From Burkholderiales bacterium (GTDB lineage Bacteria > Patescibacteriota > Minisyncoccia > Phycocordibacterales > UBA9973), in the NCBI GenBank assembly GCA_023701005.1, contig JAMPXW010000002.1, positions 45,347 through 109,346 of the forward strand: a stretch of DNA of 64,000 bases. The letters run 5' to 3'. This document shows, piece after piece, positions 36,791 to 58,597 of the stretch (its first letter is position 1; each line of letters opens with the position of its first letter). A program made the position numbers and the translations under genes. The notes beneath the pieces are model-generated. The model saw only the letters and a program-made list of their open reading frames with translations, did no database searches and was not told the DNA's origin.

Positions 36791-38260
36791 TTATATCATA
36801 GGTTCCGCTTCTTGAGAAGTTGTATTTTTTGAGCTTTCTTCTGCTAAAGATCCTTTACCTTTTCCTTCAATGATTGCTTTTTCTTCCGCGCTTCTTATGA
36901 TAGTAGCTTCTTCTTCTGCAATAAGTTTCTGAGCATCATCTTTTGAAATAGAATATTTCCTACGAGAAGCTTCTATTATTTCTTTGCGATAAGAAGGATG
37001 TGTAGGGGGCAAAACTCTTAATGTTTCAGCAGAAAATGGATCATAAGATTCACCATCAATCGTCATTTTAATATAAAATTCAGCTACAGCTAAATTAATC
37101 ATATCTTTAACTCCGAAAAGTGGTTCAAATTCTGGTTTTAATTTTACTGCATCTTCTCCACCAACTCTAAAACAAATTATACTTCCCGTGTTTCCAAGCA
37201 CAGCATGTTGAACTTGGGGTAATAATTGTCCTATATATTGATGAGCAATGGTTAAGTTCAGTGCATATTTTCTAGCCTCTGACAAAATGTTTTCAAAAGT
37301 ATGTGTGACTATGTTTTGAAACTCATCTATGTATAAATAAAAATCTCTACGATCTTTTTCTGGTATTGCTGCTCTTTCCATTCCAGCTTGTTTTATTTTT
37401 GTTAAGAACATTGAACCAAAGAAACTTGAATTTTCTTCTCCAATGCGTCCTTTTGAAAGATTAATAAAAATAATTTTACCTTCATTCATTAATTTACTAA
37501 TATCAATTTTATTTTGCTTTTGTCCAAATATATTTCGTAGAAGTGGATCAGACAAAAACTGTCCCAATTTGTTAACAAGAGGAATGATAGCATCTGTATC
37601 GAACTTTTCAGACCAATCAGCAAATTCGATAGCGAAGAATCTTTTAACCATGTCGTCAGTAATATATTCGACTACTTTCTGTCTATAATTTCTATCAGTC
37701 AACATCGATATCATTCCACGCATTGTGGCATGAGGATAATCCAAAAGTGCCAAACAAGTAAAACGAAAAACGTGTTCAAGGCGTGGTGTCCAGTTTGCCC
37801 CGAATTGTTTTTGCAAAACCTCAATCAAGCCTTGGGTCAATTGAAATTTGAAAAGCGGATCGACGTTGGCAAGAGGGTTGAAAGAAGCTGGAAAATCTAC
37901 ATCTCCAGGGTCAATAACACAAACATCTTCTATTCTCTCTTTTGGAATATAATCCAGCATCGCGTCGATAACATCTCCGTGTGGATCAATAAGACAAAGG
38001 CCATGATTGTATGTGACGTCTTGGCGAATAAACAATTCCATTAATTTAGTTTTACCAACACCAGACTTACCAACAATATACAAATGTCTTCTTCTATCTA
38101 TTCTTTTTAGACCAAAAATAAATTTCTTTTCTTCAAGTGAAGCTACATAATTTGTACGCCCGATGAAAGAAACCTCTTCGGGATCTACTTTTCCAAAAAC
38201 AGGAAGTTCTGGTGGAGGTGGCCCATATTTTATTATTTGCACTCGATTTGGCTTCGGCAT
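36791..38260 (-). CDS. VirD4/TraD/HerA-like P-loop ATPase (coupling-protein-like, no TM anchor), copy 1 (489 aa)
   Basis: Walker A '[14 protein letters not shown]'. 'LIDPHGD'. Walker B '[10 protein letters not shown]'. 'LNLTIAHQY'. Paralogous to the 42501..44579 protein. Confidence 0.8.
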
Positions 38261-38323: not shown

Positions 38324-39040
38324 ATGAAAATACATAGATTTATAGATAAATTTGATTTTTCAAAAAATAAAATAGAAATAACAAACCCTGAAATAATCAA
38401 CCAAATAAAGCTTGTTTTAAGGCTAAAAAAGGGAGAAATTATAATTTTATCTGACGGTAAAGGTAAAAGTATAGAAGTAACCCTAGATACAATAAATCCA
38501 AATAAAATTATATGTATTCCAAACAAAGGAAACTCTACTGTAAAGAATGATACTGAAAATAAAAAAGTAAATTTATATTTAGCTATATTGAAAAAAGAAA
38601 ATTTTGAATTATCTGTACAGAAAGCAGTAGAAGTCGGTGTATCAAAAATAATACCTGTAATAACAGAAAGAACTATTAAAACGGGTTTAAATGTAATTCG
38701 TTTAGAAAAAATAATCAAAGAAGCTAGTGAACAATGCGGAAGAGATATATTACCTACACTATCTAATATCTCTAAATTTGAAGACGCCCTAAAAGATGGA
38801 GAAAATTCTGAAGAGAAAATTATTTTTCATATAGACAAAAATATTAATAACAATTTCTATACTCCAAATAAAAAAGCAAAAACTTCAAGCATTTTTATAG
38901 GACCAGAAGGTGGTTTTACGGAGAATGAAATAAAACTAGCTAAAAATTTAAATTATAAAATCAGTTCTCTTGGCTCTCTAACCTTGCGTGGAGAAACAGC
39001 CGCCATAGTAGCTACTTATCGTGCAGTCGAAGGAATTTAA
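38324..39040 (+). CDS. rsmE: 16S rRNA (uracil1498-N3)-methyltransferase RsmE
   Basis: C-terminal SPOUT block 'FIGPEGGFTENEIKLAKNLNYKISSLGSLTLRGETAAIVA'. Confidence 0.8.
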   Translation: MKIHRFIDKFDFSKNKIEITNPEIINQIKLVLRLKKGEIIILSDGKGKSIEVTLDTINPNKIICIPNKGNSTVKNDTENKKVNLYLAILKKENFELSVQKAVEVGVSKIIPVITERTIKTGLNVIRLEKIIKEASEQCGRDILPTLSNISKFEDALKDGENSEEKIIFHIDKNINNNFYTPNKKAKTSSIFIGPEGGFTENEIKLAKNLNYKISSLGSLTLRGETAAIVATYRAVEGI

Positions 39041-40740
39041 TAGACCTCTTTGTTATAACAATTTTCACAATATACTATTTCAGGTCTGTCAGGGGCGTAA
39101 GAAGTTTCAAATTCATTATTACAACCTTCTTTCATGCATTTACGATGCCAGAGGTTACGTGGATTTCTCAACATAAATCTATCAGTACGACGACAAGCAA
39201 AACATTTTTCAGGTATGGGTAAATTTAATATTTTATATAAAGATAATTCTAAAGAAGTAATTTTAAAAGCTGTCGTGCATAGAGGATATTCATCTTTATA
39301 ATCATTTAATTTTTGAGATGAACATTGTATTGCTTCTTCTAAAATATTTTCTTTAATTTCTGAAAAAGTTTTGGGTATTTTTTCTGCAGGGATAAAAATC
39401 TTGTAATCTCTTTCTGGTCTATCGTACCATTTATAGCCCTTTCTTTTAGCTTCTTCTTTATTTAAAGGAAAATAATCTTGAGCCATAGATTCATTGTATG
39501 CAAATGGTGAAAAATTAGCTGGAAAATATTCACCCCACTCTTCTATGTCTATCATATGTTTGATTATTTTTTCTTTTAAAGAAAAATAATCTGATTTAGA
39601 ATATTGTTTATTTAAAATACAATAACTTTTTTTCTTTAAGCCAAAACATCCAAAACAATTTTCTACACCAAAACACATATCACAATAATACGAATCAGTA
39701 ATGGTACCAAAACAACTTCTAATAATCATAGATCTATGTGGTGCTTCAACACCTTGAGCTTCATAAGCTAGCTGTCCAGTAATTATTTCTGTACAATCGC
39801 GGCAATCTTCAGAATCCCATGCATCTTGCATATAAGCAGTATCTTTATTTTTATGACAATTAAAACCAAGTTTCATTCTTTGAGTATTTTCTATATAATC
39901 ACCATTAGACTGTTGAACTTGTACACCATGATAAAATTTTATAGGCATGCTAAGTCTTAATTTAAAAGCTTCTTCTTGTGATTTTTTTATAAAATCTCTA
40001 TCCCATTCAAAATTTTTAACTTTTTTTTCATATTCATCTTTTCCTATATTTTTATTAAAATAAAAATACTGTTTATTTCGAAGACCAACACAACCGAAAC
40101 AATCAGTGCATCCCTTGCAATCATTAGAAAAATAGACATTAACACAGTCAGAACAATCAGAAGACCAAAGACAATGAGAACACTTTTTAATATTAATACA
40201 CTCATAACAGTATTCGCTCTTTTCTGCTAAATAACAATCACTTAAAAAATAACAGCCCCACTGACACCAGCTTCCATACATACATTTTTCATTTGAACCA
40301 CTTGTAACAAGCATATAACAATCTTTATTGTTTTGAGATTGATTTGTATATTCGCTATTTACACTACTAGCATTAACCATAGCCAAATGTGGGACTATAT
40401 CGCGCAACTCTTCGTATTGTTCAAAAAAAGATTTATTAAAATCAAAATCTCTTCCATATTTTACAGCATCAAATTTATCTGATTTCCAATATTCTTGTTT
40501 ATAAACAGGGAAAGAAACATTTTCTCTGTAAATTGAAATTATACTTTCTCCAGTAGCATCACATTTTCTTTTATAAAAGTTATATTCATTTCTATCTAAA
40601 AGCCTACGAATATATCTGCATTCCGGGCAAAATGTCGGTGGAGGGACTTTTATTTTCTCATAAAAAGAGAAGTCATCAGGCTCTATAATAAAGTCACATT
40701 TGCAATTTTTACATATTTTGTTTTCACTTTTGTATTCCAT
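39037..40740 (-). CDS. Cys-rich zinc-ribbon paralog family protein, copy D (567 aa)
   Basis: 'CKNCKCDFIIEPDDFSFYEKIKVPPPTFCPECR' ... 'CVGLRNKQYFYFNKNIGKDEYEK' ... 'LWHRKCMKEGCNNEFETSYAPDRPEIVYCENCYNKEVY'. Confidence 0.85.
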   Translation of the reverse strand: MEYKSENKICKNCKCDFIIEPDDFSFYEKIKVPPPTFCPECRYIRRLLDRNEYNFYKRKCDATGESIISIYRENVSFPVYKQEYWKSDKFDAVKYGRDFDFNKSFFEQYEELRDIVPHLAMVNASSVNSEYTNQSQNNKDCYMLVTSGSNEKCMYGSWCQWGCYFLSDCYLAEKSEYCYECINIKKCSHCLWSSDCSDCVNVYFSNDCKGCTDCFGCVGLRNKQYFYFNKNIGKDEYEKKVKNFEWDRDFIKKSQEEAFKLRLSMPIKFYHGVQVQQSNGDYIENTQRMKLGFNCHKNKDTAYMQDAWDSEDCRDCTEIITGQLAYEAQGVEAPHRSMIIRSCFGTITDSYYCDMCFGVENCFGCFGLKKKSYCILNKQYSKSDYFSLKEKIIKHMIDIEEWGEYFPANFSPFAYNESMAQDYFPLNKEEAKRKGYKWYDRPERDYKIFIPAEKIPKTFSEIKENILEEAIQCSSQKLNDYKDEYPLCTTAFKITSLELSLYKILNLPIPEKCFACRRTDRFMLRNPRNLWHRKCMKEGCNNEFETSYAPDRPEIVYCENCYNKEVY

Positions 40741-40742
40741 GT

Positions 40743-42497
40743 TTAATACACTTCTTTATTATAACAATTTTCACAATATACTATTTCAGGTCTGTCGGGA
40801 GCGTAAGGCGTTTTGAAAGTAGCCAAACATTTACCTTGATGTCCATGACCCTCATTTTCACACATACATTCTCTACGCCAAAGTTTCATTGGATTACGTT
40901 TCTTCAACCTATTCTCATGACGACAATTAAAACAAAATCTCGGTAAAGGAACTCCTAATTTTCTATATAAATTAAATTCATCTAAGATTATTTTATAAGC
41001 TCCCCTACAATATCCACTTTCTGTATCTTTATTTTTACAACCAATAATTTCATTCAAAATTGATTCATCAACATCTCTTAAATCATCAGGCAAATCTACT
41101 GATTCAATAGTCGTCACATATTCACTCACCTTCTTGTCTCTCCACCTATAACCATTTTTTATAGCTTCTTCTTTATTTAAAGGAAAATAATCTTGAGCTT
41201 GAGTTTCGTTGTAACAAAAAGTAGACATTTCTGCAGGGAAAAATTCACCATATTTATAAATTAGACCCCTCTTGTCTATATATGGCATATCGTTCATGTG
41301 TTGTTTTATTTTTGGTATTAATTCTTCATATTCTTCTTTTGTGTATTGTTTATTTAAAATACAATATTTCTTCGTTCGAAGACCTATACATCCAAATATA
41401 TTGTCACAACCATGACAATTGAAAGAATATTCTACATTATTAGAACTATAAACAACACTAGTAAATAAATTACGAAAATTCCCTATTCCTGTATCAAAAG
41501 ACTCATACAATAATTCACCATCTCCAACTCCGGGGCCAGAATCATATGCATCTTTTAAGAAATAAGCTGCCCAATGAATAAATTTACAATCTTCTATTCT
41601 ATTTCCAACTGCATCAAAAGAATATCTACAATTTTTTACACCTTCTAAATTATCCCCCGTTGAATTCATTACTTTATTTTGGTTTGAAAAACGATGCAAA
41701 GATTTTGAATGAATTTCTTTAAATTTTTCTTTCAATTCTTCAACAACTTTATAACTTTTTAAATTTATTTCTGACAATCGGCTTAAATATTCATCCCTAG
41801 AAAGTTGCTCATTCCACATACAATACGATTTATTACGTAAATTTGTGCAACCAAAACAATTTATACAACCATGACAATCATATAGAAAATAAGAATCTAC
41901 ACAACTTTTACAATTGGTAGAGTACAAAGTCTGATAACAATCTGAACAAAATAAGTTTTCATAACAGAGTTCACATCTGTGTGCTACATAAACATCTGAG
42001 CATTCTTTTGTCATTGTTATTCTATTAGAATATAAAGTCCTATCTATTTGCCATGAACCAGAACACAAATAACTATCTTTGCTGCCCTCCGCCACATTAC
42101 AATAATCACTATTAGTGGCTTTTATATTAGAAAGACTTTGTAATGGAATTTTATCTCTCAATTCTTTCCATTGTGTAAAAAATGTTTTAGAAAAATCATA
42201 TTCTTTTCCAAAAGAAACTGCATTCCATTCATCTCCCCACCAATACTTACTATCACAAACGACAACCTCTTCAGAAGGATGAATAAAAGAAACAAGCATC
42301 TCGTTGTGACCTGGAGCATCACATTTTCTTTTAAATAGAGACATTTCATTTCTCCAGCACAGCCTTCTAATAGTCCTACATTCTGGGCAAAATGTCGGAG
42401 GAGGAACCTTTATTTTTTCATAAAATTTAAAATCTTCTGGCTTTAATACAAAGTCTATTTTACAATTCTGGCAAATAATTTTGACTTCGTTTTCCAT
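40743..42497 (-). CDS. Cys-rich zinc-ribbon paralog family protein, copy E (584 aa)
   Basis: 'CQNCKIDFVLKPEDFKFYEKIKVPPPTFCPECR' ... 'CTNLRNKSYCMWNEQLSRDEY' ... 'CIGLRTKKYCILNKQYTKEEYEEL' ... 'PEIVYCENCYNKEVY'. Confidence 0.85.
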   Translation of the reverse strand: MENEVKIICQNCKIDFVLKPEDFKFYEKIKVPPPTFCPECRTIRRLCWRNEMSLFKRKCDAPGHNEMLVSFIHPSEEVVVCDSKYWWGDEWNAVSFGKEYDFSKTFFTQWKELRDKIPLQSLSNIKATNSDYCNVAEGSKDSYLCSGSWQIDRTLYSNRITMTKECSDVYVAHRCELCYENLFCSDCYQTLYSTNCKSCVDSYFLYDCHGCINCFGCTNLRNKSYCMWNEQLSRDEYLSRLSEINLKSYKVVEELKEKFKEIHSKSLHRFSNQNKVMNSTGDNLEGVKNCRYSFDAVGNRIEDCKFIHWAAYFLKDAYDSGPGVGDGELLYESFDTGIGNFRNLFTSVVYSSNNVEYSFNCHGCDNIFGCIGLRTKKYCILNKQYTKEEYEELIPKIKQHMNDMPYIDKRGLIYKYGEFFPAEMSTFCYNETQAQDYFPLNKEEAIKNGYRWRDKKVSEYVTTIESVDLPDDLRDVDESILNEIIGCKNKDTESGYCRGAYKIILDEFNLYRKLGVPLPRFCFNCRHENRLKKRNPMKLWRRECMCENEGHGHQGKCLATFKTPYAPDRPEIVYCENCYNKEVY

Positions 42498-42500
42498 TTT

Positions 42501-44579
42501 TTATTCCAAAATCTTTTTTAAAACATCTTCAGAAACTTCTTTTGTCTCAGTTTTAGGAATATTTTTTACTAAATCATCAAGATTAGAAGGCTCAGGAACT
42601 TTTTCTTCAGAAATTTTGACTTCTTCTTTAATTACTTTATCAGATATAAAATTCTTTAATTTATTCATTTCATCTACACTGGCTGATCTGTCTTTTGTGG
42701 ATGTTGGATGAGTATTTGATTGAGTATTTTTTAATTCACTTAAAGATATCTGTTTTACTTGTACTGGTTTTTCTTTTACTATCTCCTTTTTTATAGCCTC
42801 TGGTTCTTTTTTAGCTAAAGTCTTGTCTAATATTTCTCTTAAAGCTAAATTCTCTTTTGGTTTTTCTTTTGTAAATACCTTCTTAAAAGCAGAAAATATT
42901 TTTGGCTTTACCGGAATAAATGGTTTCTGAATATTGGGCACATTAACATTTTTGATTTCTGCTTCATTGTGTATATTTTTATCTATCCTTTCTGGATACC
43001 TTTCAGCACTATTATTCATTCCATCTTTTTGTTTAAATTCTATACCCAGATCAGCCAATGGTTTATAAAATTTAGATTCATCTTGTTTTATTTGATTTAA
43101 TGAACCTTTTATAGGTTTAACTTCTCCTGATTTTATCTTTGCTATACAATCTCTACAATAGACAGCTCTACCTGCTTCTGGTTTAAAAGGAACAAAAGTA
43201 TCTTTTTTACAAACAGAACATTGTGCGGGAAATTTCTCTACTCCAAGGCCATTGGTATCATCACCCAAAGACATTCCACTCCAATTGTTTATTTCTCTTT
43301 CTACGACTTCTCTCGATCTACAATAAAGTTCACGTGATGATTTGATAACTTCCTCTTCGACTTCTTTATTACCAGATTTTGCCATAGGAGGTAAGGTTTT
43401 TGCCGAAAAAGGACGAGATGTTATACCGTCAATCATTAATTTCAAATAAATTTTAAAGTTAGGCAAACTGACAATATCTTGAGGTGTAAATTCTGGTTCA
43501 AATTCTTTTTCTAAAAATTCTGCATCGTCAGCACCTACTCTAAATATAATCATCGTTCCAACGTTACCAAAAATAGAATCTCTCACACTTGAATTTTTGT
43601 CTGAAACTAATTGTGCAGTATACTGATGCGCCACAGTAAGATTCAATCTGTATTTTCTAGCTTCAGATAATATAGAAGCGAAAGAATCTGTAACGAAATT
43701 TTGGAATTCGTCGACATATAAATAAAAATCTTTTCTTTCATCTTCGGGTATACGGACACGTTCCATGGCAGCAAGTTGAATTTTAGTGATGAGCATACCT
43801 CCCAACAAAGAAGAGTTATCTTCACCGATACGTCCCTTAGAAACATTCACAAGGAATATCTTCCCTTCGTTCATTATGTCAAAGACATTTATTGTACTTT
43901 TTGATTGCCCAACGACATTTCTTATGATTGAAGTAGACAAGAATTGTCCAACTTTATTTTGTATAGGAGCAATAGCTTCATTTCTAAACTTATCTTGCCA
44001 AGCTTCATATTCATGAACCCAAAAAGATTTGATGACTGGATCTTTTAAATTAGAAATTATTTTCTGACGATAGTCTTTATCTACCAACATTCTAGGAATA
44101 CCGAGCATTGTGGTGCCTGGAGTATCAAGTAAAGCCAAAATGGCATTATTCAAAATATATTCCATCCTGGCAGACCAAGCATTGGCCCATATCTTCGTAA
44201 AGATCCCCATAAGTCCAGACGCCACTAAGTGTTTATATTTTGGATCAACTAATTCAAGAACATTAAATCCAATATGATAATCAGGGTCACTAGGATTAAA
44301 ATAGACAACATCTTTCATTCGATGAGGAGGAATAGCACCTAAAACACTTTCGACTAATTCTCCATGCGGGTCGACAACACAAACACCAGAACCATTTTCA
44401 ATATTCTGAACTATCATATTAAACATCAATACAGACTTACCTGTACCAGATTTTCCAAGTATATAAACATGCTGACGTCTATCTTTGCGTTTTATGCCAA
44501 AAAGCTGATTTTTATCTCTATAAGTAGTGAGCCCAATGTATGTAAGATCCTTATTTTTTGGTATCTCTTTGATATCCAT
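42501..44579 (-). CDS. VirD4/TraD/HerA-like P-loop ATPase, copy 2 (692 aa), with a C-terminal zinc ribbon and a K/E-rich low-complexity tail
   Basis: Walker A 'YILGKSGTGKSVLM'. 'VVDPHGE'. Walker B 'FYLYVDEFQN'. 'LNLTVAHQY'. C-terminal 'CSVCKKDTFVPFKPEAGRAVYCRDC', then a K/E/P-rich tail. Confidence 0.8.
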   Translation of the reverse strand: MDIKEIPKNKDLTYIGLTTYRDKNQLFGIKRKDRRQHVYILGKSGTGKSVLMFNMIVQNIENGSGVCVVDPHGELVESVLGAIPPHRMKDVVYFNPSDPDYHIGFNVLELVDPKYKHLVASGLMGIFTKIWANAWSARMEYILNNAILALLDTPGTTMLGIPRMLVDKDYRQKIISNLKDPVIKSFWVHEYEAWQDKFRNEAIAPIQNKVGQFLSTSIIRNVVGQSKSTINVFDIMNEGKIFLVNVSKGRIGEDNSSLLGGMLITKIQLAAMERVRIPEDERKDFYLYVDEFQNFVTDSFASILSEARKYRLNLTVAHQYTAQLVSDKNSSVRDSIFGNVGTMIIFRVGADDAEFLEKEFEPEFTPQDIVSLPNFKIYLKLMIDGITSRPFSAKTLPPMAKSGNKEVEEEVIKSSRELYCRSREVVEREINNWSGMSLGDDTNGLGVEKFPAQCSVCKKDTFVPFKPEAGRAVYCRDCIAKIKSGEVKPIKGSLNQIKQDESKFYKPLADLGIEFKQKDGMNNSAERYPERIDKNIHNEAEIKNVNVPNIQKPFIPVKPKIFSAFKKVFTKEKPKENLALREILDKTLAKKEPEAIKKEIVKEKPVQVKQISLSELKNTQSNTHPTSTKDRSASVDEMNKLKNFISDKVIKEEVKISEEKVPEPSNLDDLVKNIPKTETKEVSEDVLKKILE

Positions 44580-44612: not shown

Positions 44613-46301
44613 CTAATATATTTCTTTCTGATAACAAGCCTCACAATAAACTATCTCTGGTCTTTCGGGAGCATAAGAAGTCTCAAATTCATTATTACAA
44701 CCCTCTTTCATACATTTACGATGCCAAAGTCTTGGTGGATTACGTTTTTCTACTCTCTCAAAATATCTACAATTTGGACAAAGATGTGGGATAGGAATAT
44801 TTAATTTTTTATACAATCCCAATTCATTTTGCAAGACCCTAAAAGCAGTAGTGCAATTATGATTACATTTTCCATTGTGTCCACAGCTTATTATTTCTTG
44901 TATTATATTATCTTTTATATCATTTATATCCTCTGGTAATTGATCTATCGGTAAAGTAACTTTATAATCTCTTAAATCTGCATCACGCCAACAATATCCT
45001 TTATCTTCAACTTCTTTCTTTGTCAGTGGAAAAAGTTCCTGTGCCTCAGATTCATTGTAAGCAAAAGGGCTAATCCAATATGGGAAAAATTCTCCAAATT
45101 CCTTTGTCTTTTTCATATGTTCAATTATTTTTTCTTTCAAATTCTCATATTCTTCTTTGTTGTATTTCTTATTTAAAATTGAATAAGAACCTTTCTTCAT
45201 TCCGACACAACCAAAACAATTTTCAGCAGAAGGAGAAAACAAAGAATAGTAAATATCTCGACATTGAAAACAAAAAACTGAAAAATAATTTCTCTGAGAA
45301 TTATCTGCTACAACTACTTCATAACACTGCTCTGCTTTTCCACTCATTAAACTATCATAAGTGTCTTTTGTCGTATCGCTACCAAAAATAAATCTCTGAT
45401 TTTCTCCGTTAATTACCTGGAAAGCATATTTTACATTTTTACAATTTATCAAAAAATCACCAGTAGAAATTACGGATTTTTTGATATAAGAATATTTATG
45501 AGGGAAATTAGAACAAAAATCTTTAAATTCTTTTTTATATTTTTCTACAGAATAAAAATTACTTAAATTCATCTTTTTTAATTTTATTTCATATTCTTCT
45601 TTTGTATATTGTTTATTTTTTATACAATAGCTTTTATTTCTTAAGCCAATACACATAATACAATTCAAACATCCACTCAAATCATAACCCAAAAAACAAT
45701 CCTGGCATTCTGAACAATAGGTACAATACTTAGAACGTGCTATCTTATAGCACTGCAGACATTCATAAGCGAGCTCCGCTTCTCTCATGTGCATACAGTC
45801 AAGCATATCTTTGTTGTGTTCAATATGAAAAGAATATAAAACATTTTCCGCGTGCCAACCGGAAACACACATATAACAATTTTTACTAAAAAACCAATCA
45901 TATGTATATTCACAATTTACACTTGCTACTTCATTATCATTTGTAATCGAGAGAGCAGGAACTATTAATGACAACTCTTTTAGTTGCTCAAAAAAGTTTT
46001 TAGAAAAATCAAATTCTATCCCATATTGACATGGATCCCAATTATCACTCCACCAACATTTTTGACAATAAACTGGGAATGGTGCATTTGTTGGATAAAT
46101 AGAAATTATATTTTTCTTACACAAGTCACATTCTCTTTTATATAAGGTATGGCCATTTCGAAACATCATTCGTCTCTGCATTCTACATTCCGGGCAAAAA
46201 GTTGGTGGTGGAACAACTATTTTCTCATAAAAACCAAAATCATCCGGCTCTATTGTGAAGTCTTTTTTACAGTTTTGACAATTTTTAATTTCAGATTGCA
46301 T
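44613..46301 (-). CDS. Cys-rich zinc-ribbon paralog family protein, copy F (562 aa)
   Basis: 'CQNCKKDFTIEPDDFGFYEKIVVPPPTFCPECR' ... 'CIGLRNKSYCIKNKQYTKEEYE' ... 'LWHRKCMKEGCNNEFETSYAPERPEIVYCEACYQKEIY'. Confidence 0.85.
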   Translation of the reverse strand: MQSEIKNCQNCKKDFTIEPDDFGFYEKIVVPPPTFCPECRMQRRMMFRNGHTLYKRECDLCKKNIISIYPTNAPFPVYCQKCWWSDNWDPCQYGIEFDFSKNFFEQLKELSLIVPALSITNDNEVASVNCEYTYDWFFSKNCYMCVSGWHAENVLYSFHIEHNKDMLDCMHMREAELAYECLQCYKIARSKYCTYCSECQDCFLGYDLSGCLNCIMCIGLRNKSYCIKNKQYTKEEYEIKLKKMNLSNFYSVEKYKKEFKDFCSNFPHKYSYIKKSVISTGDFLINCKNVKYAFQVINGENQRFIFGSDTTKDTYDSLMSGKAEQCYEVVVADNSQRNYFSVFCFQCRDIYYSLFSPSAENCFGCVGMKKGSYSILNKKYNKEEYENLKEKIIEHMKKTKEFGEFFPYWISPFAYNESEAQELFPLTKKEVEDKGYCWRDADLRDYKVTLPIDQLPEDINDIKDNIIQEIISCGHNGKCNHNCTTAFRVLQNELGLYKKLNIPIPHLCPNCRYFERVEKRNPPRLWHRKCMKEGCNNEFETSYAPERPEIVYCEACYQKEIY

Positions 46302-47092: not shown

Positions 47093-48985
47093 TTATTCTT
47101 TTGGCACTTCTCCTTCTTTATTATCCGCATCTCGAACTTCTGCATTTTGTTCTTCTGGTGCAGAAGCTGGAGGAGTTTCGGCTCCGGCTTTATTTAAAGC
47201 TTCACCTATTTTAGACATTTCATTTGAAAGTTCTTCTGTAGCTTTTTTAATAGCTTCAGAATCATTTCCATCTTTTACTCCACGTAATGCTGTTATTTTT
47301 GTATTAACGCCTTCTTTCACATCAGCTGGAATCTTGTCTTCATTATCCTTCAAAGCTTTCTCGGCTGTATAAATAATCATTTCTGCTGTATTTTTTATAT
47401 CAACCATCTCTCTTTTCTTTTTATCTTCTTCAGCATGAACTTCTGCATCTTGTTGCATCTTTTTGATATCTTCTTCCTTGAGTCCAGAACTTGCTTCGAT
47501 TTTAATTGATTGTGCTTTTCCTGAAGCTTTATCCATTGCTTTCACATTCAATATTCCATTAACATCAATATCAAAAGTCACTTCAACTTGAGGCATACCC
47601 CTAGGTGCTGGTGGAATTCCATCCAAAATAAATCTACCCAAAGATTTATTGTCAGAAGCCATTGGACGTTCTCCTTGCACTATATGGATTTCTACAGAAG
47701 TTTGATTATCAGCAGCAGTAGAAAATACTTGAGATTTTGAAGCTGGAATAGTAGTATTTCTTTCTATCAATTTTGTAGCTACTCCTCCTAATGTTTCAAT
47801 ACCAAGAGAAAGTGGAATGACATCCAAAAGCAAAACATCACGAACATCTCCAGCCAATACTCCTGCTTGCACAGCAGCACCCAAGGCTACAACTTCATCA
47901 GGATTAATAGACATATTTGGAGTTTTTCCGAAAAGATTCTTTACAGCCTCCACTATTGCTGGCATTCTAGTCTGACCTCCTACCATTATTATTTCATTTA
48001 TTTCATTCATTTTAAATGGAGAAGCTTCTAGGGCTCTTTTTGTAATAGCAATAGAACGATCTATGTATTCTTTTGCCAAAGATTCTAAAGTGGCACGAGA
48101 CATTTTCAAAAGTAAATGCTTAGGGCCATCTGAATCAGAAGTAATAAATGGAATATTTATCTCTGCTTCCATTGTTGTAGAAAGTTCATGTTTTGCTTTT
48201 TCTGCAGCTTCTTTTAATCTTTGGTGCGCCAATGGATCTTTCCTCACATCTACTCCAGATTCTTTTTTATATTCTTCGGCGATCCAAGTGATTATTTTTC
48301 TATCTATATCTCCACCACCCATATGACTATCTCCATCTGTAGATTTAACTTCTATGACATCATCACCTATCTCTAAAACAGAAACATCAAAAGTTCCTCC
48401 CCCAAAGTCATACACAACTATCTTTTCATTTTTCTTTTTATTAAATCCATAAGCGAGAGCTGCTGCGGTAGGTTCATTTATAATTCTTTTTACATCAAGT
48501 CCAGCTATTTGTCCTGCATCTTTTGTGGCTTTTCTTTGAGCATCATTAAAATAAGCTGGAACAGTGATCACTGCTTCTGTTATTTTTTCTCCGAGCTTTG
48601 CTTCTACGTCTGTTTTTATTTTTTGTAATATCATCGCAGATATTTCTTCTGGACGATAAAACTTTTCAGACATTTTTACTTTTACTCCACCATCTTCTCC
48701 CGTCTCTATTTTAAATGGAGCTGTAGTTTTATCTTTCTGAACTTCTGGATCATCAAATCTATGACCCATATATCTTTTTATTTCAGAAATTGTATTTTCT
48801 GGATTTGTCACAGCTTGTCTTTTAGCCAACAAACCTACAATGCGATCACCGTTTTTTGCTGTTGCTATGACAGAAGGAGTCGTACGATTTCCTTCTACGT
48901 TTTCAATAATCTTTGGTGCCCCTCCCTCTACGAAAGCGACTGCAGAATTTGTTGTACCCAAATCTATACCTATTATTTTTGACAT
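47093..48985 (-). CDS. dnaK: Chaperone DnaK (Hsp70)
   Basis: '[13 protein letters not shown]', '[10 protein letters not shown]' and 'VGGQTRMP' with a full Hsp70 architecture. Confidence 0.95.
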
Positions 48986-49117: not shown

Positions 49118-49630
49118 ATGTCAAGCAAACAAGAATATTCCAATAAAATACTTAAAATATTAGCTGAAAAACCAGCTGTACCTTTAGAGGCAATAAAGGA
49201 AAATAAGGATTCAAAGACAGGATATGCCCTTAATCGTTCAATAAAAAATCTTATAGAGTCTGGCTGTATCGAAATATTAAAATCAGATAATAGAGATTAT
49301 CTCAAATTAACAAAAAAAGGTAAAAATAAATTGAATTCTTTAAAACTTGAGGCCGATGGAGTACTAGTCTCTACTCATTGGGATGGATTATGGAGAATAA
49401 TTATTCTAGATATCCCAGAACAAAGAAAAAGTGAGCGAGAGGCTTTGAGATACCTACTAAAAAAAGCAAATTTCGTTTGTGTAAAAAACACTGTATGGAT
49501 ATCCCCTTTCCCTTATGAAAATCTTTTCACTAATATTAAAAAAGATTTAAACTTAGGCACAGAATTAATGATAATCGTCACAAATAAATTAGACGAAGAA
49601 ACAGCAAAAGCATTTAAATCAAGTTTTTAA
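49118..49630 (+). CDS. PaaX-like winged-helix transcriptional regulator (170 aa)
   Basis: 'HWDGLWRIIILDIPEQRKSEREALRYLLKKANFVCVKNTVWISPFP' fits the PaaX C-domain pattern WdGxW..V...iPE..R..R..LR..L...gF..l...vWisP. The N-terminus is wHTH-like. Confidence 0.55.
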   Translation: MSSKQEYSNKILKILAEKPAVPLEAIKENKDSKTGYALNRSIKNLIESGCIEILKSDNRDYLKLTKKGKNKLNSLKLEADGVLVSTHWDGLWRIIILDIPEQRKSEREALRYLLKKANFVCVKNTVWISPFPYENLFTNIKKDLNLGTELMIIVTNKLDEETAKAFKSSF

Positions 49631-51532: not shown

Positions 51533-53275
51533 TTAATAAACTTCTTGTTGATAACAACGTTCACAATAGACTATTTCTTTTCTCTCGGGGGCATAAGAAG
51601 TCTCAAATTCATTATCACATCCCTCTTTCATGCATTTTCTTTTATATAATTTGATTCCATTTCGCATTTTTATGCGTTCGAAATGCCTACAATTAGGACA
51701 AAGTCTAGGAATTGGTATATTCATTCTTTTATAAAAAGAAAGTTCTGTCTCAGTTATTTTAAAAGCTTCTGTACAAGAACCATCACAATTCGATTCAAAA
51801 TGATTATTTTTACTATGATGTAAGCATTCAATGACCTTTCCTATTATACTAGAATCAATGCTTAAAATATCATCAGCTATATCTTCCTGTTTTATATCTA
51901 TTAAATAATTTCTTTTTTCTTCTTCTCTCCATTTATAACCCTTTTCTAAAATCTCACCTTTCATTAAAGGAAAATAATCCTGAGCCAAAGATTCATTGTA
52001 ACAAAAAGGAGACAAGTCAGATGGTAAAAACTCACCATATTTATAAATTACTCCTCTCTTATCTACATACGGAAGATCATTCATATGCTGTTTTATTTTT
52101 GGCAATAATTCTTCATATGCTTCTTTTGTATATTGTTTATTTAAAATACAATATTGTTTATTTCTAAGTCCAGAACAACCAAAAATGTTTGTACATCCAG
52201 TACAACTAAATGAATATTCACAATTTTGACAACCTTTGCTGCAACGATAGTTAAATTTATTATTAAAACAATCAGAACCTACAGAAGAACATTCATAACA
52301 TAATTCAGAATTCTCCCCCCATAAAGTACAATCATAACAATCTTTAAAATTTCGTGTAAAAAAAACTTGTATATATTTACTATCTTCTCCCCCAATTACA
52401 TAATAACTTTGATGAACATTTTTAGAATTATTTATGTATTCACCAGAAACATTATTATTATATCGACCTTCTAAAAATTTTCTTATATTTTTATTTAAAA
52501 TAATATCAGTCTTCCGCTTTGTTTTTTCTAATGCTTCATAAGAACCTAAATTGAAATCCCTAATAAATTTTTCATACTCTCCCTTAGAATATTGTTTATT
52601 AAAAACAAAATACTGCTTATTTCTTAAATTAGTACAACCAAAACAAGAATTACAACCAATTAAATCTCTGGAAAACCACACATCCATGCAGTTTTCACAG
52701 TGAGAAGAAAATAAAGTTCTATAACATTTAGTAAGGGCAAAGGATTGATAACATAATTCAGATGATTCAATTCTAGTTACATCTATTGAATTTTTTGTTC
52801 TATTAATTTCAGCACTATACATTGAATCTTCTGAAATCGCTGCAACAAACACTAAATAACAATTTTTTAAATCATGAGCCCCACTACAATAATCGCTGTT
52901 AACCATATCCCAAGAAGTTTGGCTAGGAATAGGAACATCTAAAAATAATTCTTTTAATTGGATAAAAAAATTTTTATTAAAGTCATATTCTCTACCATAA
53001 TCCAAGCTATTTAATTCATCAGACCACCAAATATCTCTCTCCCAAACTTTAAAGGGTGATTCTTGTGGAACGATAGAAAAAATAGTTTTTCCTGTTTTAT
53101 CACTTATTCTCTTATATAAAACACGATAATCACGAAAAGCCATTCTCCTAATCATCCTACACTCCGGGCAAAATGTAGGTGGAGGAACCTTTATTTTTTC
53201 ATAAAATTTAAAATCTTCTTGCTCGATTATGAAGTCTTTTTTACAATTCTGACATTGTCGGGTTTCGTTTTTCAT
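51533..53275 (-). CDS. Cys-rich zinc-ribbon paralog family protein, copy G (580 aa)
   Basis: 'CQNCKKDFIIEQEDFKFYEKIKVPPPTFCPECR' ... 'CTNLRNKQYFVFNKQYSKGEYEK' ... 'CSGLRNKQYCILNKQYTKEAYEEL' ... 'EIVYCERCYQQEVY'. Confidence 0.85.
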   Translation of the reverse strand: MKNETRQCQNCKKDFIIEQEDFKFYEKIKVPPPTFCPECRMIRRMAFRDYRVLYKRISDKTGKTIFSIVPQESPFKVWERDIWWSDELNSLDYGREYDFNKNFFIQLKELFLDVPIPSQTSWDMVNSDYCSGAHDLKNCYLVFVAAISEDSMYSAEINRTKNSIDVTRIESSELCYQSFALTKCYRTLFSSHCENCMDVWFSRDLIGCNSCFGCTNLRNKQYFVFNKQYSKGEYEKFIRDFNLGSYEALEKTKRKTDIILNKNIRKFLEGRYNNNVSGEYINNSKNVHQSYYVIGGEDSKYIQVFFTRNFKDCYDCTLWGENSELCYECSSVGSDCFNNKFNYRCSKGCQNCEYSFSCTGCTNIFGCSGLRNKQYCILNKQYTKEAYEELLPKIKQHMNDLPYVDKRGVIYKYGEFLPSDLSPFCYNESLAQDYFPLMKGEILEKGYKWREEEKRNYLIDIKQEDIADDILSIDSSIIGKVIECLHHSKNNHFESNCDGSCTEAFKITETELSFYKRMNIPIPRLCPNCRHFERIKMRNGIKLYKRKCMKEGCDNEFETSYAPERKEIVYCERCYQQEVY

Positions 53276-53276
53276 A

Positions 53277-54974
53277 TTAATAAACTTCTTGCTGATAACA
53301 CTTCTCGCAATAAACTATCTCAGGGCGTTCGGGGGCATAAGAAGTCTCAAATTCGTTATCACATCCCTCTTTCATGCATTTCCTATGCCAAAGCTTCATT
53401 GGGTTTTTAAGACTAAGCCTCATTTTATATCTTTCATCTTGATGAATTCTAGGTAATGGAATATCCATACGACGATAAAATTCTAATTCAAAAGGAGTAA
53501 TTTTAAAAGCTTTTTTTGTTATCAAACATTCTATAACTTCATTTAGAATAGAATGATCTACATCTTTTATATCATCTGGAATTTCTTCAGCTTTTTTTGT
53601 TATCACATATTTATTGTCGATCTTCTCTTTATATGAATATCCATTTTTTAATATTTCTTCTTTTGTAAGCAAAAAATGATCATTTGCAACTGTTTCATTA
53701 TATCCAAATGGAGAAAACTCAAAAGGAAAAAATTCACCATATTTATAAATATTACCAATACTATCTATGTAAGGCATCTCATCCATTTGTTTTTTTATTT
53801 TTCCTACTAATTCAAAGTATTCTTCCTTTGTATATTCTTTATTTAAAATACAATATTCTTTATTTCTTAAACCAACACAACCGAAAATATAACTAGAAGA
53901 TCCACAATAATCACTATATTCAACATGGCTTAAAGCTGGATAACCAGTAGTTATAAATTTTAAATTTTGACTATTTGTTGCACCACCAGAACTAAACTCA
54001 TAGACCAATTCTCCACTTAAATGACAAGTATCCATTACATCTTTTGAATTAACATCCCTATATGTATATTTTGAATTTTCAGTACCATAAGAATTAAAAA
54101 TGAAATTAGAAGATTTACAATTTCTTATATCATCCCCTTTTGAATTTATACAATTTGTTGTTCTAGCATATTTTCTTGGAAATTTTAATGAAAAATCCCA
54201 AAATTTATCAAAATTTTCTTTAAAAAATTTATAACTTCCAATATTTAAATTTTTTATTTTTTCAAAATATTCGTCTTTATCATATTCTTTATTCCAAATA
54301 CAATATTTTTTATTTCGTAAATTTACACAACCAAAACAATTCTGACAATTGACACAATCTAAAACGAAATTGGAATCAATACACGAAGAAGACCAATAAC
54401 AATATTTACAATTATAATTTTTTGTACATCCAATATTTTGATATATTAATTCACTTTCAGTTATATTATAAGAATCTACTACTAATTTTGAATTATCGAT
54501 ATTGCTTGAATAATAAACATTTTCTGAGCCAAATATAACAGAATATGAGAGATAAGCATTTTTTGCACCATCAACAAAATTAGCATATTCTACATTCAAA
54601 CAATTGCCAACTTGCCTAATAGCTGGACGAGGCACCTTATTAAACAATTCTCTCCATTGCACAAAAAAAGATTTTTTAAAATCATATTCTTGACTATATT
54701 TTAATGAATCCCAATCATCACTTTTCCAACATTCTGCACAATATACTGGGAAAACAACATTGGCATCATATACTGCAATTATTTTCTTATTACATAGGTC
54801 ACAACTGCGTTTATATAGAGAGCGCTCATTTCTCCAAATTAATCTACGAACAAGTCGACACTCCGGGCAAAATGTAGGTGGAGGAACCTTTATTTTTTCA
54901 TAAAATTTAAAATCTTCTTGCTCTATCTGAAAGTCTTTTTTACAATTCTGACATTGTCTTATCTCATTTTTCAT
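53277..54974 (-). CDS. Cys-rich zinc-ribbon paralog family protein, copy H (565 aa)
   Basis: 'CQNCKKDFQIEQEDFKFYEKIKVPPPTFCPECR' ... 'CVNLRNKKYCIWNKEYDKDEY' ... 'CVGLRNKEYCILNKEYTKEEYFEL' ... 'LWHRKCMKEGCDNEFETSYAPERPEIVYCEKCYQQEVY'. It lies 1 nt from copy G. Confidence 0.85.
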   Translation of the reverse strand: MKNEIRQCQNCKKDFQIEQEDFKFYEKIKVPPPTFCPECRLVRRLIWRNERSLYKRSCDLCNKKIIAVYDANVVFPVYCAECWKSDDWDSLKYSQEYDFKKSFFVQWRELFNKVPRPAIRQVGNCLNVEYANFVDGAKNAYLSYSVIFGSENVYYSSNIDNSKLVVDSYNITESELIYQNIGCTKNYNCKYCYWSSSCIDSNFVLDCVNCQNCFGCVNLRNKKYCIWNKEYDKDEYFEKIKNLNIGSYKFFKENFDKFWDFSLKFPRKYARTTNCINSKGDDIRNCKSSNFIFNSYGTENSKYTYRDVNSKDVMDTCHLSGELVYEFSSGGATNSQNLKFITTGYPALSHVEYSDYCGSSSYIFGCVGLRNKEYCILNKEYTKEEYFELVGKIKKQMDEMPYIDSIGNIYKYGEFFPFEFSPFGYNETVANDHFLLTKEEILKNGYSYKEKIDNKYVITKKAEEIPDDIKDVDHSILNEVIECLITKKAFKITPFELEFYRRMDIPLPRIHQDERYKMRLSLKNPMKLWHRKCMKEGCDNEFETSYAPERPEIVYCEKCYQQEVY

Positions 54975-55087: not shown

Positions 55088-56869
55088 TTATATAAATTCT
55101 GCTTGATAACATTTTTCACAATATACTATTTCTTTTCTCTCGTCACTTATCGCTGTTTTAAATTCATTCTGACATGGGTTATCTCCATGGTCATGTTTTA
55201 TTGTATTTTTATATTCTTTATTACTTGATTCTACACCATTACACATACATTTTCTATACCAAAGTTTGGGTGGATTCTTTATCTTTAAACGCTCTCCGTA
55301 ACGACAATTTGGGCACAATCTTGAAAGAGCTACTTTCATTTGTCGATGAAAAGATAACTCATTTGGTAAAATACGAAATGCATTTGTGCATTGTTGATTA
55401 CATTCTCCTTTATGTGCGCACTCAAAAACCTCATTTAATATATCATCAGACACAATATCTATATCATCTGGCATGTCTTCTGATTTTTTGGTTATTTTAT
55501 AATCTCTTTCTTTTTCATCATACCATTTAAAACCTTTCTTAATTGCTTCTTCTTTCGTCAATGGAAAATAATTTTGAGCCTGCGTCTCATTATAAGACCA
55601 AGAGGATAATTCATAAGGAAAAAATTCTCCGTATTTATATACTCTTCCTTTACTATCTATATATGGCATATCATTCATATGCTTTGTTATCTTAAAGACT
55701 AGCTCTTCATATTCTTCTTTTGTGTATTGTTTATTCAAAATACAATAAGATTTATTTCTTAATTTAGTACAACCAAAAAGATTATTACAAAAATAAACTC
55801 TATCGGAATAAATGATATCTGTTGATTCATTACAACCACGACTTAAAAAACATCTTTGCGAATGTTCAACCCCATTAACTTCATATAATAAATTCGAAAC
55901 GTCTCCTCCAAAAGTAACATCAATACTATCTTTTAAGAGCAAACCTCCTAAAAAAATAAATTTACAATCTTCTACTCCTCTTAAAACAGAAAAACAATTC
56001 TTACAATTCTTAGTATTTTGAATATCATCACCAGATATATTTACAGAATTTTTTATATAAGCAAATTTCCTTGGAATTTGATAATAAAATTTCCAAAACT
56101 CTTCTTTTGCTTTTTGTAAAATCTTGTAATTACCCAAGTTCCATCTTTCTATCTCTTTTTTATATTCTTCTTTTGTATATTGTTTGTTAAAAATACAATA
56201 TTTTTGATTTCTTAAGTTCACACAACCGAAACAGTTAGAACAACCTACACAATTAAAAAGAAAGGCTGAATCAATACATTCATCTGAAAAATAAATAAAT
56301 TTTGTATTATATCCAGAATTAGAATTCAAATTTTCGTATACATGATCTACATTTAAAACACCATCCGAATCTATTGAATCCTTAGAAAAAACAGGAACCT
56401 GGCAATTATAACAATTTATAGATTCATACCCATCAAAACAAAGTACACAATTTTTAGATCGTGTGTTCCCATTAGAATAGAAACAGTCAATAGACCCTTT
56501 TTGAAAAATCGACTGAAAAGGTACAACCTTTAATAAGTCTTTAAATTGTTCAAAAAATGACCTAGAGAAATCATAATCCCTGCCATAATCCGTAGCATCC
56601 CAAGAATCTTTCCACCAACAATCTGAACAATAAACTAAAAAAGAATTTTCCTTGTTATATATACTTATTATTTCTTTTTTACAACTATCACAATTTATTT
56701 TATACAGAGATCTATTCTCTCTATAACATAAACGTCTCACGAGTCTGCACTCTGGACACCAAGTTGGCGGAGGGACTTTTATTTTTTCATAAAATTTAAA
56801 ATCTTCTGGCTCGATTATGAAGTCTTGTTTACAATTTTGGCATATCTTGTTTTCACTTTTATATTCCAT
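55088..56869 (-). CDS. Cys-rich zinc-ribbon paralog family protein, copy I (593 aa)
   Basis: 'CQNCKQDFIIEPEDFKFYEKIKVPPPTWCPECR' ... 'CVNLRNQKYCIFNKQYTKEEYKKE' ... 'CTKLRNKSYCILNKQYTKEEYEEL'. There is a C-terminal insertion before 'EIVYCEKCYQAEFI'. Confidence 0.85.
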   Translation of the reverse strand: MEYKSENKICQNCKQDFIIEPEDFKFYEKIKVPPPTWCPECRLVRRLCYRENRSLYKINCDSCKKEIISIYNKENSFLVYCSDCWWKDSWDATDYGRDYDFSRSFFEQFKDLLKVVPFQSIFQKGSIDCFYSNGNTRSKNCVLCFDGYESINCYNCQVPVFSKDSIDSDGVLNVDHVYENLNSNSGYNTKFIYFSDECIDSAFLFNCVGCSNCFGCVNLRNQKYCIFNKQYTKEEYKKEIERWNLGNYKILQKAKEEFWKFYYQIPRKFAYIKNSVNISGDDIQNTKNCKNCFSVLRGVEDCKFIFLGGLLLKDSIDVTFGGDVSNLLYEVNGVEHSQRCFLSRGCNESTDIIYSDRVYFCNNLFGCTKLRNKSYCILNKQYTKEEYEELVFKITKHMNDMPYIDSKGRVYKYGEFFPYELSSWSYNETQAQNYFPLTKEEAIKKGFKWYDEKERDYKITKKSEDMPDDIDIVSDDILNEVFECAHKGECNQQCTNAFRILPNELSFHRQMKVALSRLCPNCRYGERLKIKNPPKLWYRKCMCNGVESSNKEYKNTIKHDHGDNPCQNEFKTAISDERKEIVYCEKCYQAEFI

Positions 56870-56914: not shown

Positions 56915-58597
56915 TCAATTTATGTTTTGTTTATAACATTCTTCACAAGCAATTTTCTTGTAATTCCACTCTGGTAAATAATAAGCCTTTCTATCTTTTT
57001 TACAATAACAACAAACATAATCATATGATTGAAGTACCGTTAGAGTCTTCAGGCTTTCTTTGATTCGTACATCAAAATGATATCTAGGAAGTGGGATTCC
57101 ATTTTCTCTGTAAAAAGAAAGTTCATTTCTGGCAATATTAAAACGCCAACCAGTCAAAGGACATATTAAAGCTTGGGTAATAATAGTATCGGGAACATCT
57201 TTTATATCATCAGGTAATTTGTCTGTGCTCATTCCTTCGATATTGCTTTCATTTATATCTTCCCAATAACCACCAAATTTTAAAATATCTTCTTTTTTAG
57301 TATCTGGAAAATATGTAAAACTAGTAGAAAAATTAAAAGGCCCAGCGCTCATAGAATATGGTAAAAATTTACCATACTCTCCTCTTTTTTTCATATCAGA
57401 AATTATTTTATTTTTTAGTTCTTCGTATTCAACTTTTCCATATTTTTTATTTAAAATACAATATTTTTTCTTTTTTAAACCCACACAACCAAAACAATAT
57501 TCACATTCAATACATAGATCTAAATATTCAGAGTATCTAGAAGACGACCAAGAAGAATATTTCAAAGCATAACCATTAACACAGCAACTACAGTTACCTA
57601 ATAATTCAGTATACCAACAACCATCTGCATCAATATCTGATTTATGTCTCATTCCTCTAATACAATTGAAACAATCTTCTGATTCACTGATCGTATTGCA
57701 ATTATGACAATTTTTACAATCTAAAAGATAATCACCGTCAGAATCATATATTTTAAGGTTAAAATTAAGCCTATGAACAACTTCATCTTCCATAATTTCC
57801 TCAAAACGTTTTTTAAAAGATTGAATGGCTTGATATGAACCTAAATTATAAGATTTTATTTTTTCTAGATATTCTTCCCTGCTATATTCTACATTTTCGA
57901 TACAATAAGATTTGCCTCTTAAATTCCAGCACATAAAACAATTTTGACAATTTCGACAGTCATAAAGAAAATAAGAATCGATACAATCACGAGAATGTTT
58001 TGAATAAAATAACTTATAAGAATGATGGCACTCTGCAGAGTCGTAACATTTTTCTGAATTATAACAAATAGCTACATCAATAGAATTTTTAACTTTCAAA
58101 TTCCTGTATGAATACATTAAATCTTCACATTCTTCCATTGATCGTGCTAAATAACAATTTTTAGAATTCCAAACATCATCACAATAATCGCAATTAGTGT
58201 TCTTTATACCATTCTGGTGTGGACGAGGAACTTTTTTTTGAAGTTTTTGTAATTGTTCAAAAAATGGTTTATTTTCATCATAATCTTGACCATAATTCAT
58301 AGCATCCCATTTATCGCTATACCATTCTGTAGATGTATAAATAGGGTAACGATTTTTCTCTGGTAATACTGTAATCAAATTCTCTCCAGATAAATCTGAC
58401 TTACCTTTGCGAAATTTTCCAAACATCCAAAAAGATAGATGTTGTTTTATACGACAAAAATTACAAATAGTTGGTAATTCTATATCAACTTTTTTATACA
58501 AAGAAAGTTCTCCATCCGTAATGGTAAATTCATTTTTGCAGTGCTCACATTCTCTATTTCTCTGTAATCGATTCTGATTCATTATATTCAAAAACAT
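56915..58597 (-). CDS. Cys-rich zinc-ribbon paralog family protein, copy J (560 aa), the most divergent member
   Basis: 'CEHCKNEFTITDGELSLYKKVDIELPTICNFCR' ... 'CWNLRGKSYCIENVEYSREEYLEK' ... 'CVGLKKKKYCILNKKYGKVEYEEL' ... C-terminal 'ACEECYKQNIN'. Its start overlaps the end of grpE. Confidence 0.8.
   Translation of the reverse strand: MFLNIMNQNRLQRNRECEHCKNEFTITDGELSLYKKVDIELPTICNFCRIKQHLSFWMFGKFRKGKSDLSGENLITVLPEKNRYPIYTSTEWYSDKWDAMNYGQDYDENKPFFEQLQKLQKKVPRPHQNGIKNTNCDYCDDVWNSKNCYLARSMEECEDLMYSYRNLKVKNSIDVAICYNSEKCYDSAECHHSYKLFYSKHSRDCIDSYFLYDCRNCQNCFMCWNLRGKSYCIENVEYSREEYLEKIKSYNLGSYQAIQSFKKRFEEIMEDEVVHRLNFNLKIYDSDGDYLLDCKNCHNCNTISESEDCFNCIRGMRHKSDIDADGCWYTELLGNCSCCVNGYALKYSSWSSSRYSEYLDLCIECEYCFGCVGLKKKKYCILNKKYGKVEYEELKNKIISDMKKRGEYGKFLPYSMSAGPFNFSTSFTYFPDTKKEDILKFGGYWEDINESNIEGMSTDKLPDDIKDVPDTIITQALICPLTGWRFNIARNELSFYRENGIPLPRYHFDVRIKESLKTLTVLQSYDYVCCYCKKDRKAYYLPEWNYKKIACEECYKQNIN

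Follow-up and report, generated by a model that had tools for sequence, protein, structure and literature searches.

The window analysed here is a stretch of 64,000 nucleotides (nt) of metagenomic DNA with a guanine-plus-cytosine (GC) content of about 30%, in which nearly all coding sequence lies on the minus strand. It carries ten paralogous open reading frames (ORFs), designated A to J, all on that strand and 560 to 593 amino acids (aa) long. These genes are 41–52% identical to one another in aa and 55–62% in nt sequence, the outlier being J, which reaches 28–34% in aa. All ten copies are complete, with a start and a stop codon, and share one orientation. The gaps between them are 1–110 nt, with the tightest spacing between G and H (1 nt) and between D and E (2 nt), and J overlaps grpE. 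In effect, the ten full-length copies are packed like an operon. The stretch from 51533 to 54974, which a preliminary description of the sequence had picked out, consists of paralogs G and H. There, and in the other copies, the description had seen nearly identical gene ends around divergent middles, and had read this mosaic as a signature of gene conversion or of cassette diversification.

An AlphaFold2 model of G, built on an alignment of 73 sequences, gave a predicted local distance difference test score (pLDDT) of 83.7 and a predicted template modelling score (pTM) of 0.85. Predicted, for G as for the other paralogs, are two homologous beta-solenoid halves enclosed by zinc-finger modules at the N- and C-terminus, and these two modules are homologous to each other as well. 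Profile self-comparison with hhalign relates the N-terminal ribbon (N ribbon, residues 9–55) to the C-terminal ribbon (499–545) with a probability of 98.6%, the solenoid half at 123–241 to that at 274–395 with 99.9%, and residues 52–85 to the C-terminal end (C-end, 547–580) with 85%.

The similarities themselves are as had been described. Every quoted string was located in its place, among them the 3′ matches of D with E and of G with H (Table 1), and the 3′ ends of A and B agree at 79 of 85 nt. Seven copies (A, B, C, E, G, H and I) have the conserved 5′ motif with no more than one mismatch, and D has it with five. An internal 34-mer, which encodes YCI(L/F)NKQYTKEE, recurs in eight places; gene I has it twice, as both homologous halves of the protein are closed by this motif. 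As for the origin of the mosaic, it is probable, in our judgement, that the genes are ancient paralogs whose ends are alike mainly by constraint, with a few short conversion tracts in addition, and whose middles are stable.

Most of the general mosaic results from domain constraint and AT-biased codons. The proportions of synonymous (pS) and nonsynonymous (pN) differences were obtained along the genes by the Nei-Gojobori method. The values of pS are flat, at 0.54–0.69, which is saturated for this composition. Those of pN are 0.13 in the N ribbon, 0.18 in the C-end, 0.22 in a conserved motif nearer the middle (mid motif; residues 372–440 of G, window positions 51956–52162) and 0.47–0.51 in the centre. 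In addition, the fraction of identical residues that use the same codon is, in each region, what codon usage leads one to expect; for instance, it is 0.634 against an expected 0.608 in the N ribbon and 0.582 against 0.595 in the C-end. The preliminary description had itself named a uniform synonymous divergence from terminus to centre as the result that would speak against recombination, and uniform it is. The identity of the termini follows from amino-acid constraint, and this accounts for the layout seen in all ten genes, with ends conserved and middles diverged. The finger modules and the YCILNKQYTKEE motif closing each solenoid half are under far stronger purifying selection than the remainder of the protein, and consist of residues with only two, AT-biased codons. 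Because of this combination, the DNA in these regions stays 70–85% identical despite saturated synonymous sites.

Constraint might even be the whole explanation, in which case the ends would owe their identity to amino-acid conservation and AT-biased codons, with no exchange of DNA. The flat pS and the averaged same-codon fractions agree with this, as do the 3′ matches of D–E and G–H, which fall inside a null distribution made by codon resampling. In that procedure, synonymous codons were drawn from the usage of this gene family itself, and 135 pair-by-region tests were made, with a Bonferroni threshold of 0.00037. By contrast, the identity of A and B at the C-end and that of B and C at the N-end lie above all 4,200 resamplings (p = 0.00024, the floor of the test), and the N-end of G and H gives p = 0.0012. 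In the same two tracts, pS is only 0.20 (B–C, N ribbon) and 0.24 (A–B, C-end), compared with about 0.6 elsewhere. Hence, the reported likeness of the ends at synonymous sites goes beyond expectation in B–C and A–B, whereas the average of all pairs equals what codon usage predicts. The tracts also have sharp edges, with 3–7% mismatch inside and 38–60% in the adjoining 60 nt (48–55% for the flanks of the G–H tract in the N ribbon), and no similarity carries over into non-coding flanks. Their breakpoints are therefore discrete, as is the case in gene conversion.

Comparison with other genomes separates the ends from the rest of the genes. It drew on 82 loci, which supplied 206 family members of full length. 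For seven of the ten genes (A, B, C, D, E, G and H), the N-ribbon DNA most similar to their own belongs to a paralog in the window; among 194 foreign members, none comes as near. Within the whole set, several amino-acid motifs are likewise confined to paralogs that reside together: CxxCKCDF to A, B, C and D, IEQEDFK to G and H, the ending YNGEVY to A and B, and, at the C-end, CDNEFETSYAPE to G and H. A further motif, CENCYNKEVY, is found only in E, in two orthologs of E and in D. As it is limited to the E orthogroup plus D, copying from E into its neighbour D is indicated, and the D–E match at the C-end probably arose in this way. The C-end of G and H, judging from its private motif, is probably a conversion tract as well. 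For J, no sign of conversion was found.

Neighbour-joining (NJ) trees of the different regions are incongruent. The N-ribbon tree groups B with C (84% bootstrap), G with H (85%) and A, B, C and D together (64%), and the C-end tree groups A with B (100%), while clades that correspond to orthogroups have 0% support in the trees of the ends. By contrast, in trees of the body (residues 41–504), each of C, D, E, G, H, I and J joins its orthologs with 100% bootstrap, and the clade of G and H drops to 0%. Thus, in the tracts a paralog sits nearer to its partner in the window than to its own orthologs, whereas the body groups with the orthologs, which is the pattern that gene conversion leaves.

The same tendency can be followed through the family. 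For pairs of genes that belong to different orthogroups (less than 50% aa identity in the body), nt identity was set against the 99.5th percentile of between-genome pairs, and Fisher p values refer to other within-locus pairs against between-genome pairs. In the N ribbon, 9 of 45 window pairs and 19 of 238 other within-locus pairs exceed this percentile (p = 1e-15). The corresponding counts are 6 of 45 and 12 of 243 for the C-end (p = 4e-8), and 2 of 45 and 2 of 244 for the mid motif (p = 0.68), which served as a control for codon bias shared within a genome. End-specific homogenisation is thus a recurrent trait of these arrays across genomes. Codon bias within genomes was considered as a cause of the similarity of the ends and rejected, as the mid-motif control has no excess; the resampling null, built on the codon usage of this genome, also rules it out. 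For the reading by constraint alone the contrast is awkward too, since an equally conserved motif has no within-genome excess and both ends do. Given this, the motifs restricted to paralogs that reside together and the incongruent trees, we regard an origin of the end identity without any exchange of DNA as improbable.

Nevertheless, a number of observations count against conversion at the ends, or at least limit its reach. Averaged over all 45 pairs, the ends have no excess of synonymous identity; therefore, conversion concerns a minority of pairs. The C-end of D and E stays within the codon-resampling null (p = 0.08), and that of G and H is not significant by codon resampling alone, so that the case for these two tracts comes solely from the diagnostic motifs. 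The K-to-C change of CKCDF also occurs in one foreign ortholog of G, P0005 (a protein whose contig was used for gene order only); therefore, parallel change is possible at single sites. Moreover, A and F have no clear orthologs among the 206 members, and the orthologs in this sample were gathered incidentally. Finally, the mid motif has a degree of conservation similar to that of the ends and yet is not homogenised, so that a simple model in which conversion needs an identical seed does not account for everything. The identical runs expected from constraint alone have a null mean of about 38 in the N ribbon and of 12–35 in the mid motif, and these shorter expected runs may be relevant to the escape of the latter.

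The middles tell of old, stable genes. In the body, C–E and G–J are matched by foreign orthologs at 63–80% aa identity, compared with 35–46% for any paralog in the window. The orthologs of G, for instance, are found in other Paceibacterota and are 64–74% identical to it, against 44–49% for its paralogs in the window. Between orthologs, pN of the interiors is 0.11–0.29, with 0.11–0.27 in the centre, and pS is mostly 0.5–0.9, which is saturated; the middles are therefore under purifying selection and are not hypervariable cassettes. Concerted evolution of whole genes in the array does not fit either, as the body is closer to orthologs than to paralogs in the window.

These results bear directly on the suggestion of a variable-cassette family, in which conserved ends would act as recombination handles for the shuffling or swapping of middles, as in antigenic-variation systems. 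The layout is superficially right, with variable sequence between conserved ends and a tandem array of ten copies, but the middles are orthogroups conserved across genomes. In addition, the ten ORFs are intact and none is a truncated silent cassette. No signal peptide was found in any of the ten copies, and the proteins, which are rich in Cys, look cytoplasmic and zinc-binding. Scans of the paralogs with PADLOC and PHROGs gave no match to a defence family, and the only phage match was one weak PHROG, without an assigned function, for J. The suggestion is thus highly improbable and had to be given up. It is also conceivable that B and C, and G and H, are young tandem duplicates in which rapid divergence of the middles left only the ends as a remnant of the former identity. 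Both pairs are physically adjacent, as such an origin would have it. However, for each of B, C, G and H the body is more similar to foreign orthologs than to the adjacent paralog, the pairs have saturated pS in the body, and tracts are also common to A and B, which are 21 kb apart, and to A and C. Recent duplication is consequently hard to credit.

As the contig belongs to a metagenome-assembled genome (MAG) and exact common runs reach 66 nt, chimeric ends could in principle have been made by an assembler that jumped between paralogs at shared k-mers. Such an artefact seems very unlikely here, since both partners of each pair are intact and in frame on one contig, the tracts contain scattered mismatches, and the identical end-specific excess is seen across many independent assemblies.

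In the favoured explanation, the ten genes are ancient tandem paralogs of one large, uncharacterised family of Paceibacterota, a group of the candidate phyla radiation (CPR). We infer that homologous recombination copied segments of about 40–100 nt between paralogs in the same genome, only inside the finger-coding ends, and that tracts would end where the sequences grow too different to recombine. The exchanging pairs would be B–C, G–H and A/C/D in the N ribbon, and A–B, G–H and E to D at the C-end, and to these short tracts the gene conversion originally proposed is reduced. The middles would be neither diversified nor shuffled, each of them being a stable orthogroup across species. Gene conversion is thus real but minor, and restricted to the finger-coding ends.

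The C-end shows a further kind of variation. The loop between its cysteines has either 4 residues or 12–24 residues rich in His and Cys, and switches between these states within orthogroups (Table 1); the two members of an ortholog pair differ in this respect in 19 of 93 cases. This discordance is consistent with module exchange, and independent insertions or deletions are also possible.

Table 1. Positions of the paralogs, shared end segments, loop examples and neighbouring genes in the window
Feature	Position	Strand	Length	Remarks
Paralog A	11552..13270	-	572 aa	
Paralog B	32393..34108	-	571 aa	
Paralog C	34149..35867	-	572 aa	
Paralog D	39037..40740	-	567 aa	
Paralog E	40743..42497	-	584 aa	
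Paralog F	44613..46301	-	562 aa	
Paralog G	51533..53275	-	580 aa	Predicted beta-solenoid of two homologous halves between N and C zinc modules
Paralog H	53277..54974	-	565 aa	1 nt upstream of G
Paralog I	55088..56869	-	593 aa	
Paralog J	56915..58597	-	560 aa	Most divergent copy; ORF start overlaps end of grpE
B–C tract, N ribbon	33983..34078 (B) / 35742..35837 (C)	-	96 nt	3 mismatches
G–H tract, N ribbon	53159..53257 (G) / 54858..54956 (H)	-	99 nt	5 mismatches; 66-nt exact run
A–B tract, C-end	11552..11636 (A) / 32393..32477 (B)	-	85 nt	6 mismatches
G–H match, C-end	51586..51637 (G) / 53330..53381 (H)	-	52 nt	1 mismatch (one wildcard position in the quoted string)
D–E match, C-end	39054..39090 (D) / 40760..40796 (E)	-	37 nt	Exact 37-mer
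C-end loop, E	40743-40850			Further examples in loci L060, L075 and L043
C-end loop, I	55088-55230			Further examples in loci L060, L075 and L043
TraD/VirD4/HerA-like ATPase	42501..44579	-		zf_Tbcl_2 finger at residues 449-481
Second VirD4/HerA-like ATPase	36791..38260	-		Conserved neighbour of the array
dnaK	47093..48985	-		Frames arrays together with grpE and dnaJ
grpE	58554-59165			
dnaJ	35911-36774			

The family to which these proteins belong is very large, with at least 7,977 matching clusters (90% identity), and is typical of Paceibacterota. The ten window proteins stay below every Pfam and NCBIfam threshold and have no Pfam match even at E = 10. This includes the hexapeptide families. 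In one homolog, P0022, the C-end finger matches PF23477 (zf_Tbcl_2) with 28.0 bits (cut-off 27), and the N ribbon has a weak match to PF13451 (zf_Tbcl) with 17.5 bits (cut-off 24). The sole matches in a sequence-profile search of the PDB were marginal ones between the C-end fingers and LIM domains (E ≥ 0.012), and Foldseek returned no significant structural match (best E = 0.05, template modelling scores of 0.1–0.2). Neither by sequence nor by structure do the proteins match left-handed beta-helix proteins of the hexapeptide-repeat type. Two members, P0047 and P0097, are labelled as Aenigmarchaeota (DPANN archaea) and are 51–57% identical to G; they could stem from transfer between CPR and DPANN or from mis-binning. 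G itself is identical to the MAG protein NDI62_02040, which carries the label ‘Burkholderiales bacterium’; the sequence cluster that contains G comprises one protein, from one contig. The relatives are all Paceibacterota, Staskawiczbacteria or Nomurabacteria, and the window has 30% GC; the label is probably wrong.

The genes around the array are also informative. Their order in the window is grpE, J, I, H, G, an ATP-binding cassette (ABC) transporter gene, PaaX_M on the plus strand, dnaK, a gene similar to nicotinamide mononucleotide (NMN) transporters, F, a TraD-like ATPase with a zf_Tbcl_2 finger, E, D, rsmE on the plus strand, a second, VirD4-like ATPase, dnaJ, C and B. An order conserved between the window (35911–59165) and loci L006–L068 runs from grpE, which is not always part of it, through a family member, the ABC gene, PaaX_M, dnaK, the TraD-like ATPase with its zf_Tbcl_2 finger, a variable number of members, the VirD4-like ATPase and dnaJ to a final family member. 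Of 56 loci with a length of 12 kb or more, 28 have the ATPases adjoining the array, and about ten have dnaK and dnaJ as well. Within the window, the longest ORF of J and the 3′ end of grpE have 44 nt in common (58554–58597), and an internal Met six codons downstream offers an alternative start. The ORF at 49614–51395, of similar size to the paralogs, was considered as an eleventh copy and rejected, as it encodes the ABC transporter. Scans of the window for tRNAs and Rfam families gave no matches.

The finger of the TraD-like ATPase matches PF23477/TIGR04272 and is weakly linked by hhalign to the C-end of the paralog family. This ATPase has no N-terminal membrane segment, its P-loop begins at about residue 40, and a long tail rich in Lys and Glu follows the finger. 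From its sequence, it looks like a soluble enzyme of the HerA/FtsK type rather than a classical coupling protein. These neighbours lead to a speculative proposal, to which we assign a rather low probability. The arrays may be part of an undescribed but conserved machine of Paceibacterota, composed of dnaK, the finger ATPase, a variable number of paralogs, the second ATPase and dnaJ, with the paralogs as alternative clients or adaptors that dock by their finger ends. All copies in a cell would then have to fit one partner, and homogenisation of the ends would be retained by selection. Docking of the finger ends to the ATPases is put forward as a hypothesis only, suggested by the shared finger and by the end-specific homogenisation.

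Segmental gene conversion and concerted evolution between bacterial paralogs are well known from tufA/tufB, the PE/PPE genes and families of outer-membrane proteins. PMC13061034 is a further reference on this subject. The present case resembles such systems in its short tracts between paralogs of one genome, in the greater likeness within the genome than to orthologs, in its sharp edges and in the incongruent trees of regions. It differs from them in that the paralogs are very old, judging by their body identity, that the tracts of about 40–100 nt lie only in the two zinc-finger ends, and that this end bias is repeated across many Paceibacterota genomes. As a phenomenon, this is familiar. In the literature searched, neither the gene family nor the operon around it is described.

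Cassette antigenic variation, as in Borrelia vlsE/vls, Neisseria pilE/pilS and Treponema tprK, shares with this array the conserved flanks, the diverged centre and the many tandem copies. However, the window has no single expression site accompanied by truncated silent cassettes, and its middles are orthologous and conserved across species, in proteins that look cytoplasmic and zinc-binding and have no signal peptide. At the level of domains, the nearest known types are zf_Tbcl (PF13451) and zf_Tbcl_2 (PF23477), which are probable treble-clef zinc fingers, and TIGR04272 (CxxC-x17-CxxC); the C-end finger of homolog P0022 resembles PF23477 and its N ribbon, weakly, PF13451, and the finger of the neighbouring ATPase resembles PF23477/TIGR04272. 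The ten window proteins differ by their scores below the thresholds, and the N ribbon here has a 24-residue spacer that holds a conserved FYEKIKVPPPT. Identity to known beta-solenoids (the ice-binding protein 3ult, curli CsgA 8c50, phi29 gp12 and left-handed beta-helix acyltransferases) is 2–15%, and, unlike in those proteins, the predicted coils are rich in Cys and the core is flanked by zinc fingers.

With this analysis, a tempting variable-cassette reading in a CPR genome is set aside. In its place stands conversion restricted to particular domains of very old paralogs, a clean example of recombination that survives only where constraint keeps the DNA similar. At the same time, hypothetical proteins of a very large family gain a description of their architecture and of the conserved neighbourhood of their genes. 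The position of this family in the grpE–dnaK–dnaJ region, beside two HerA/VirD4-like ATPases, offers a concrete start for functional work on biology specific to the CPR.

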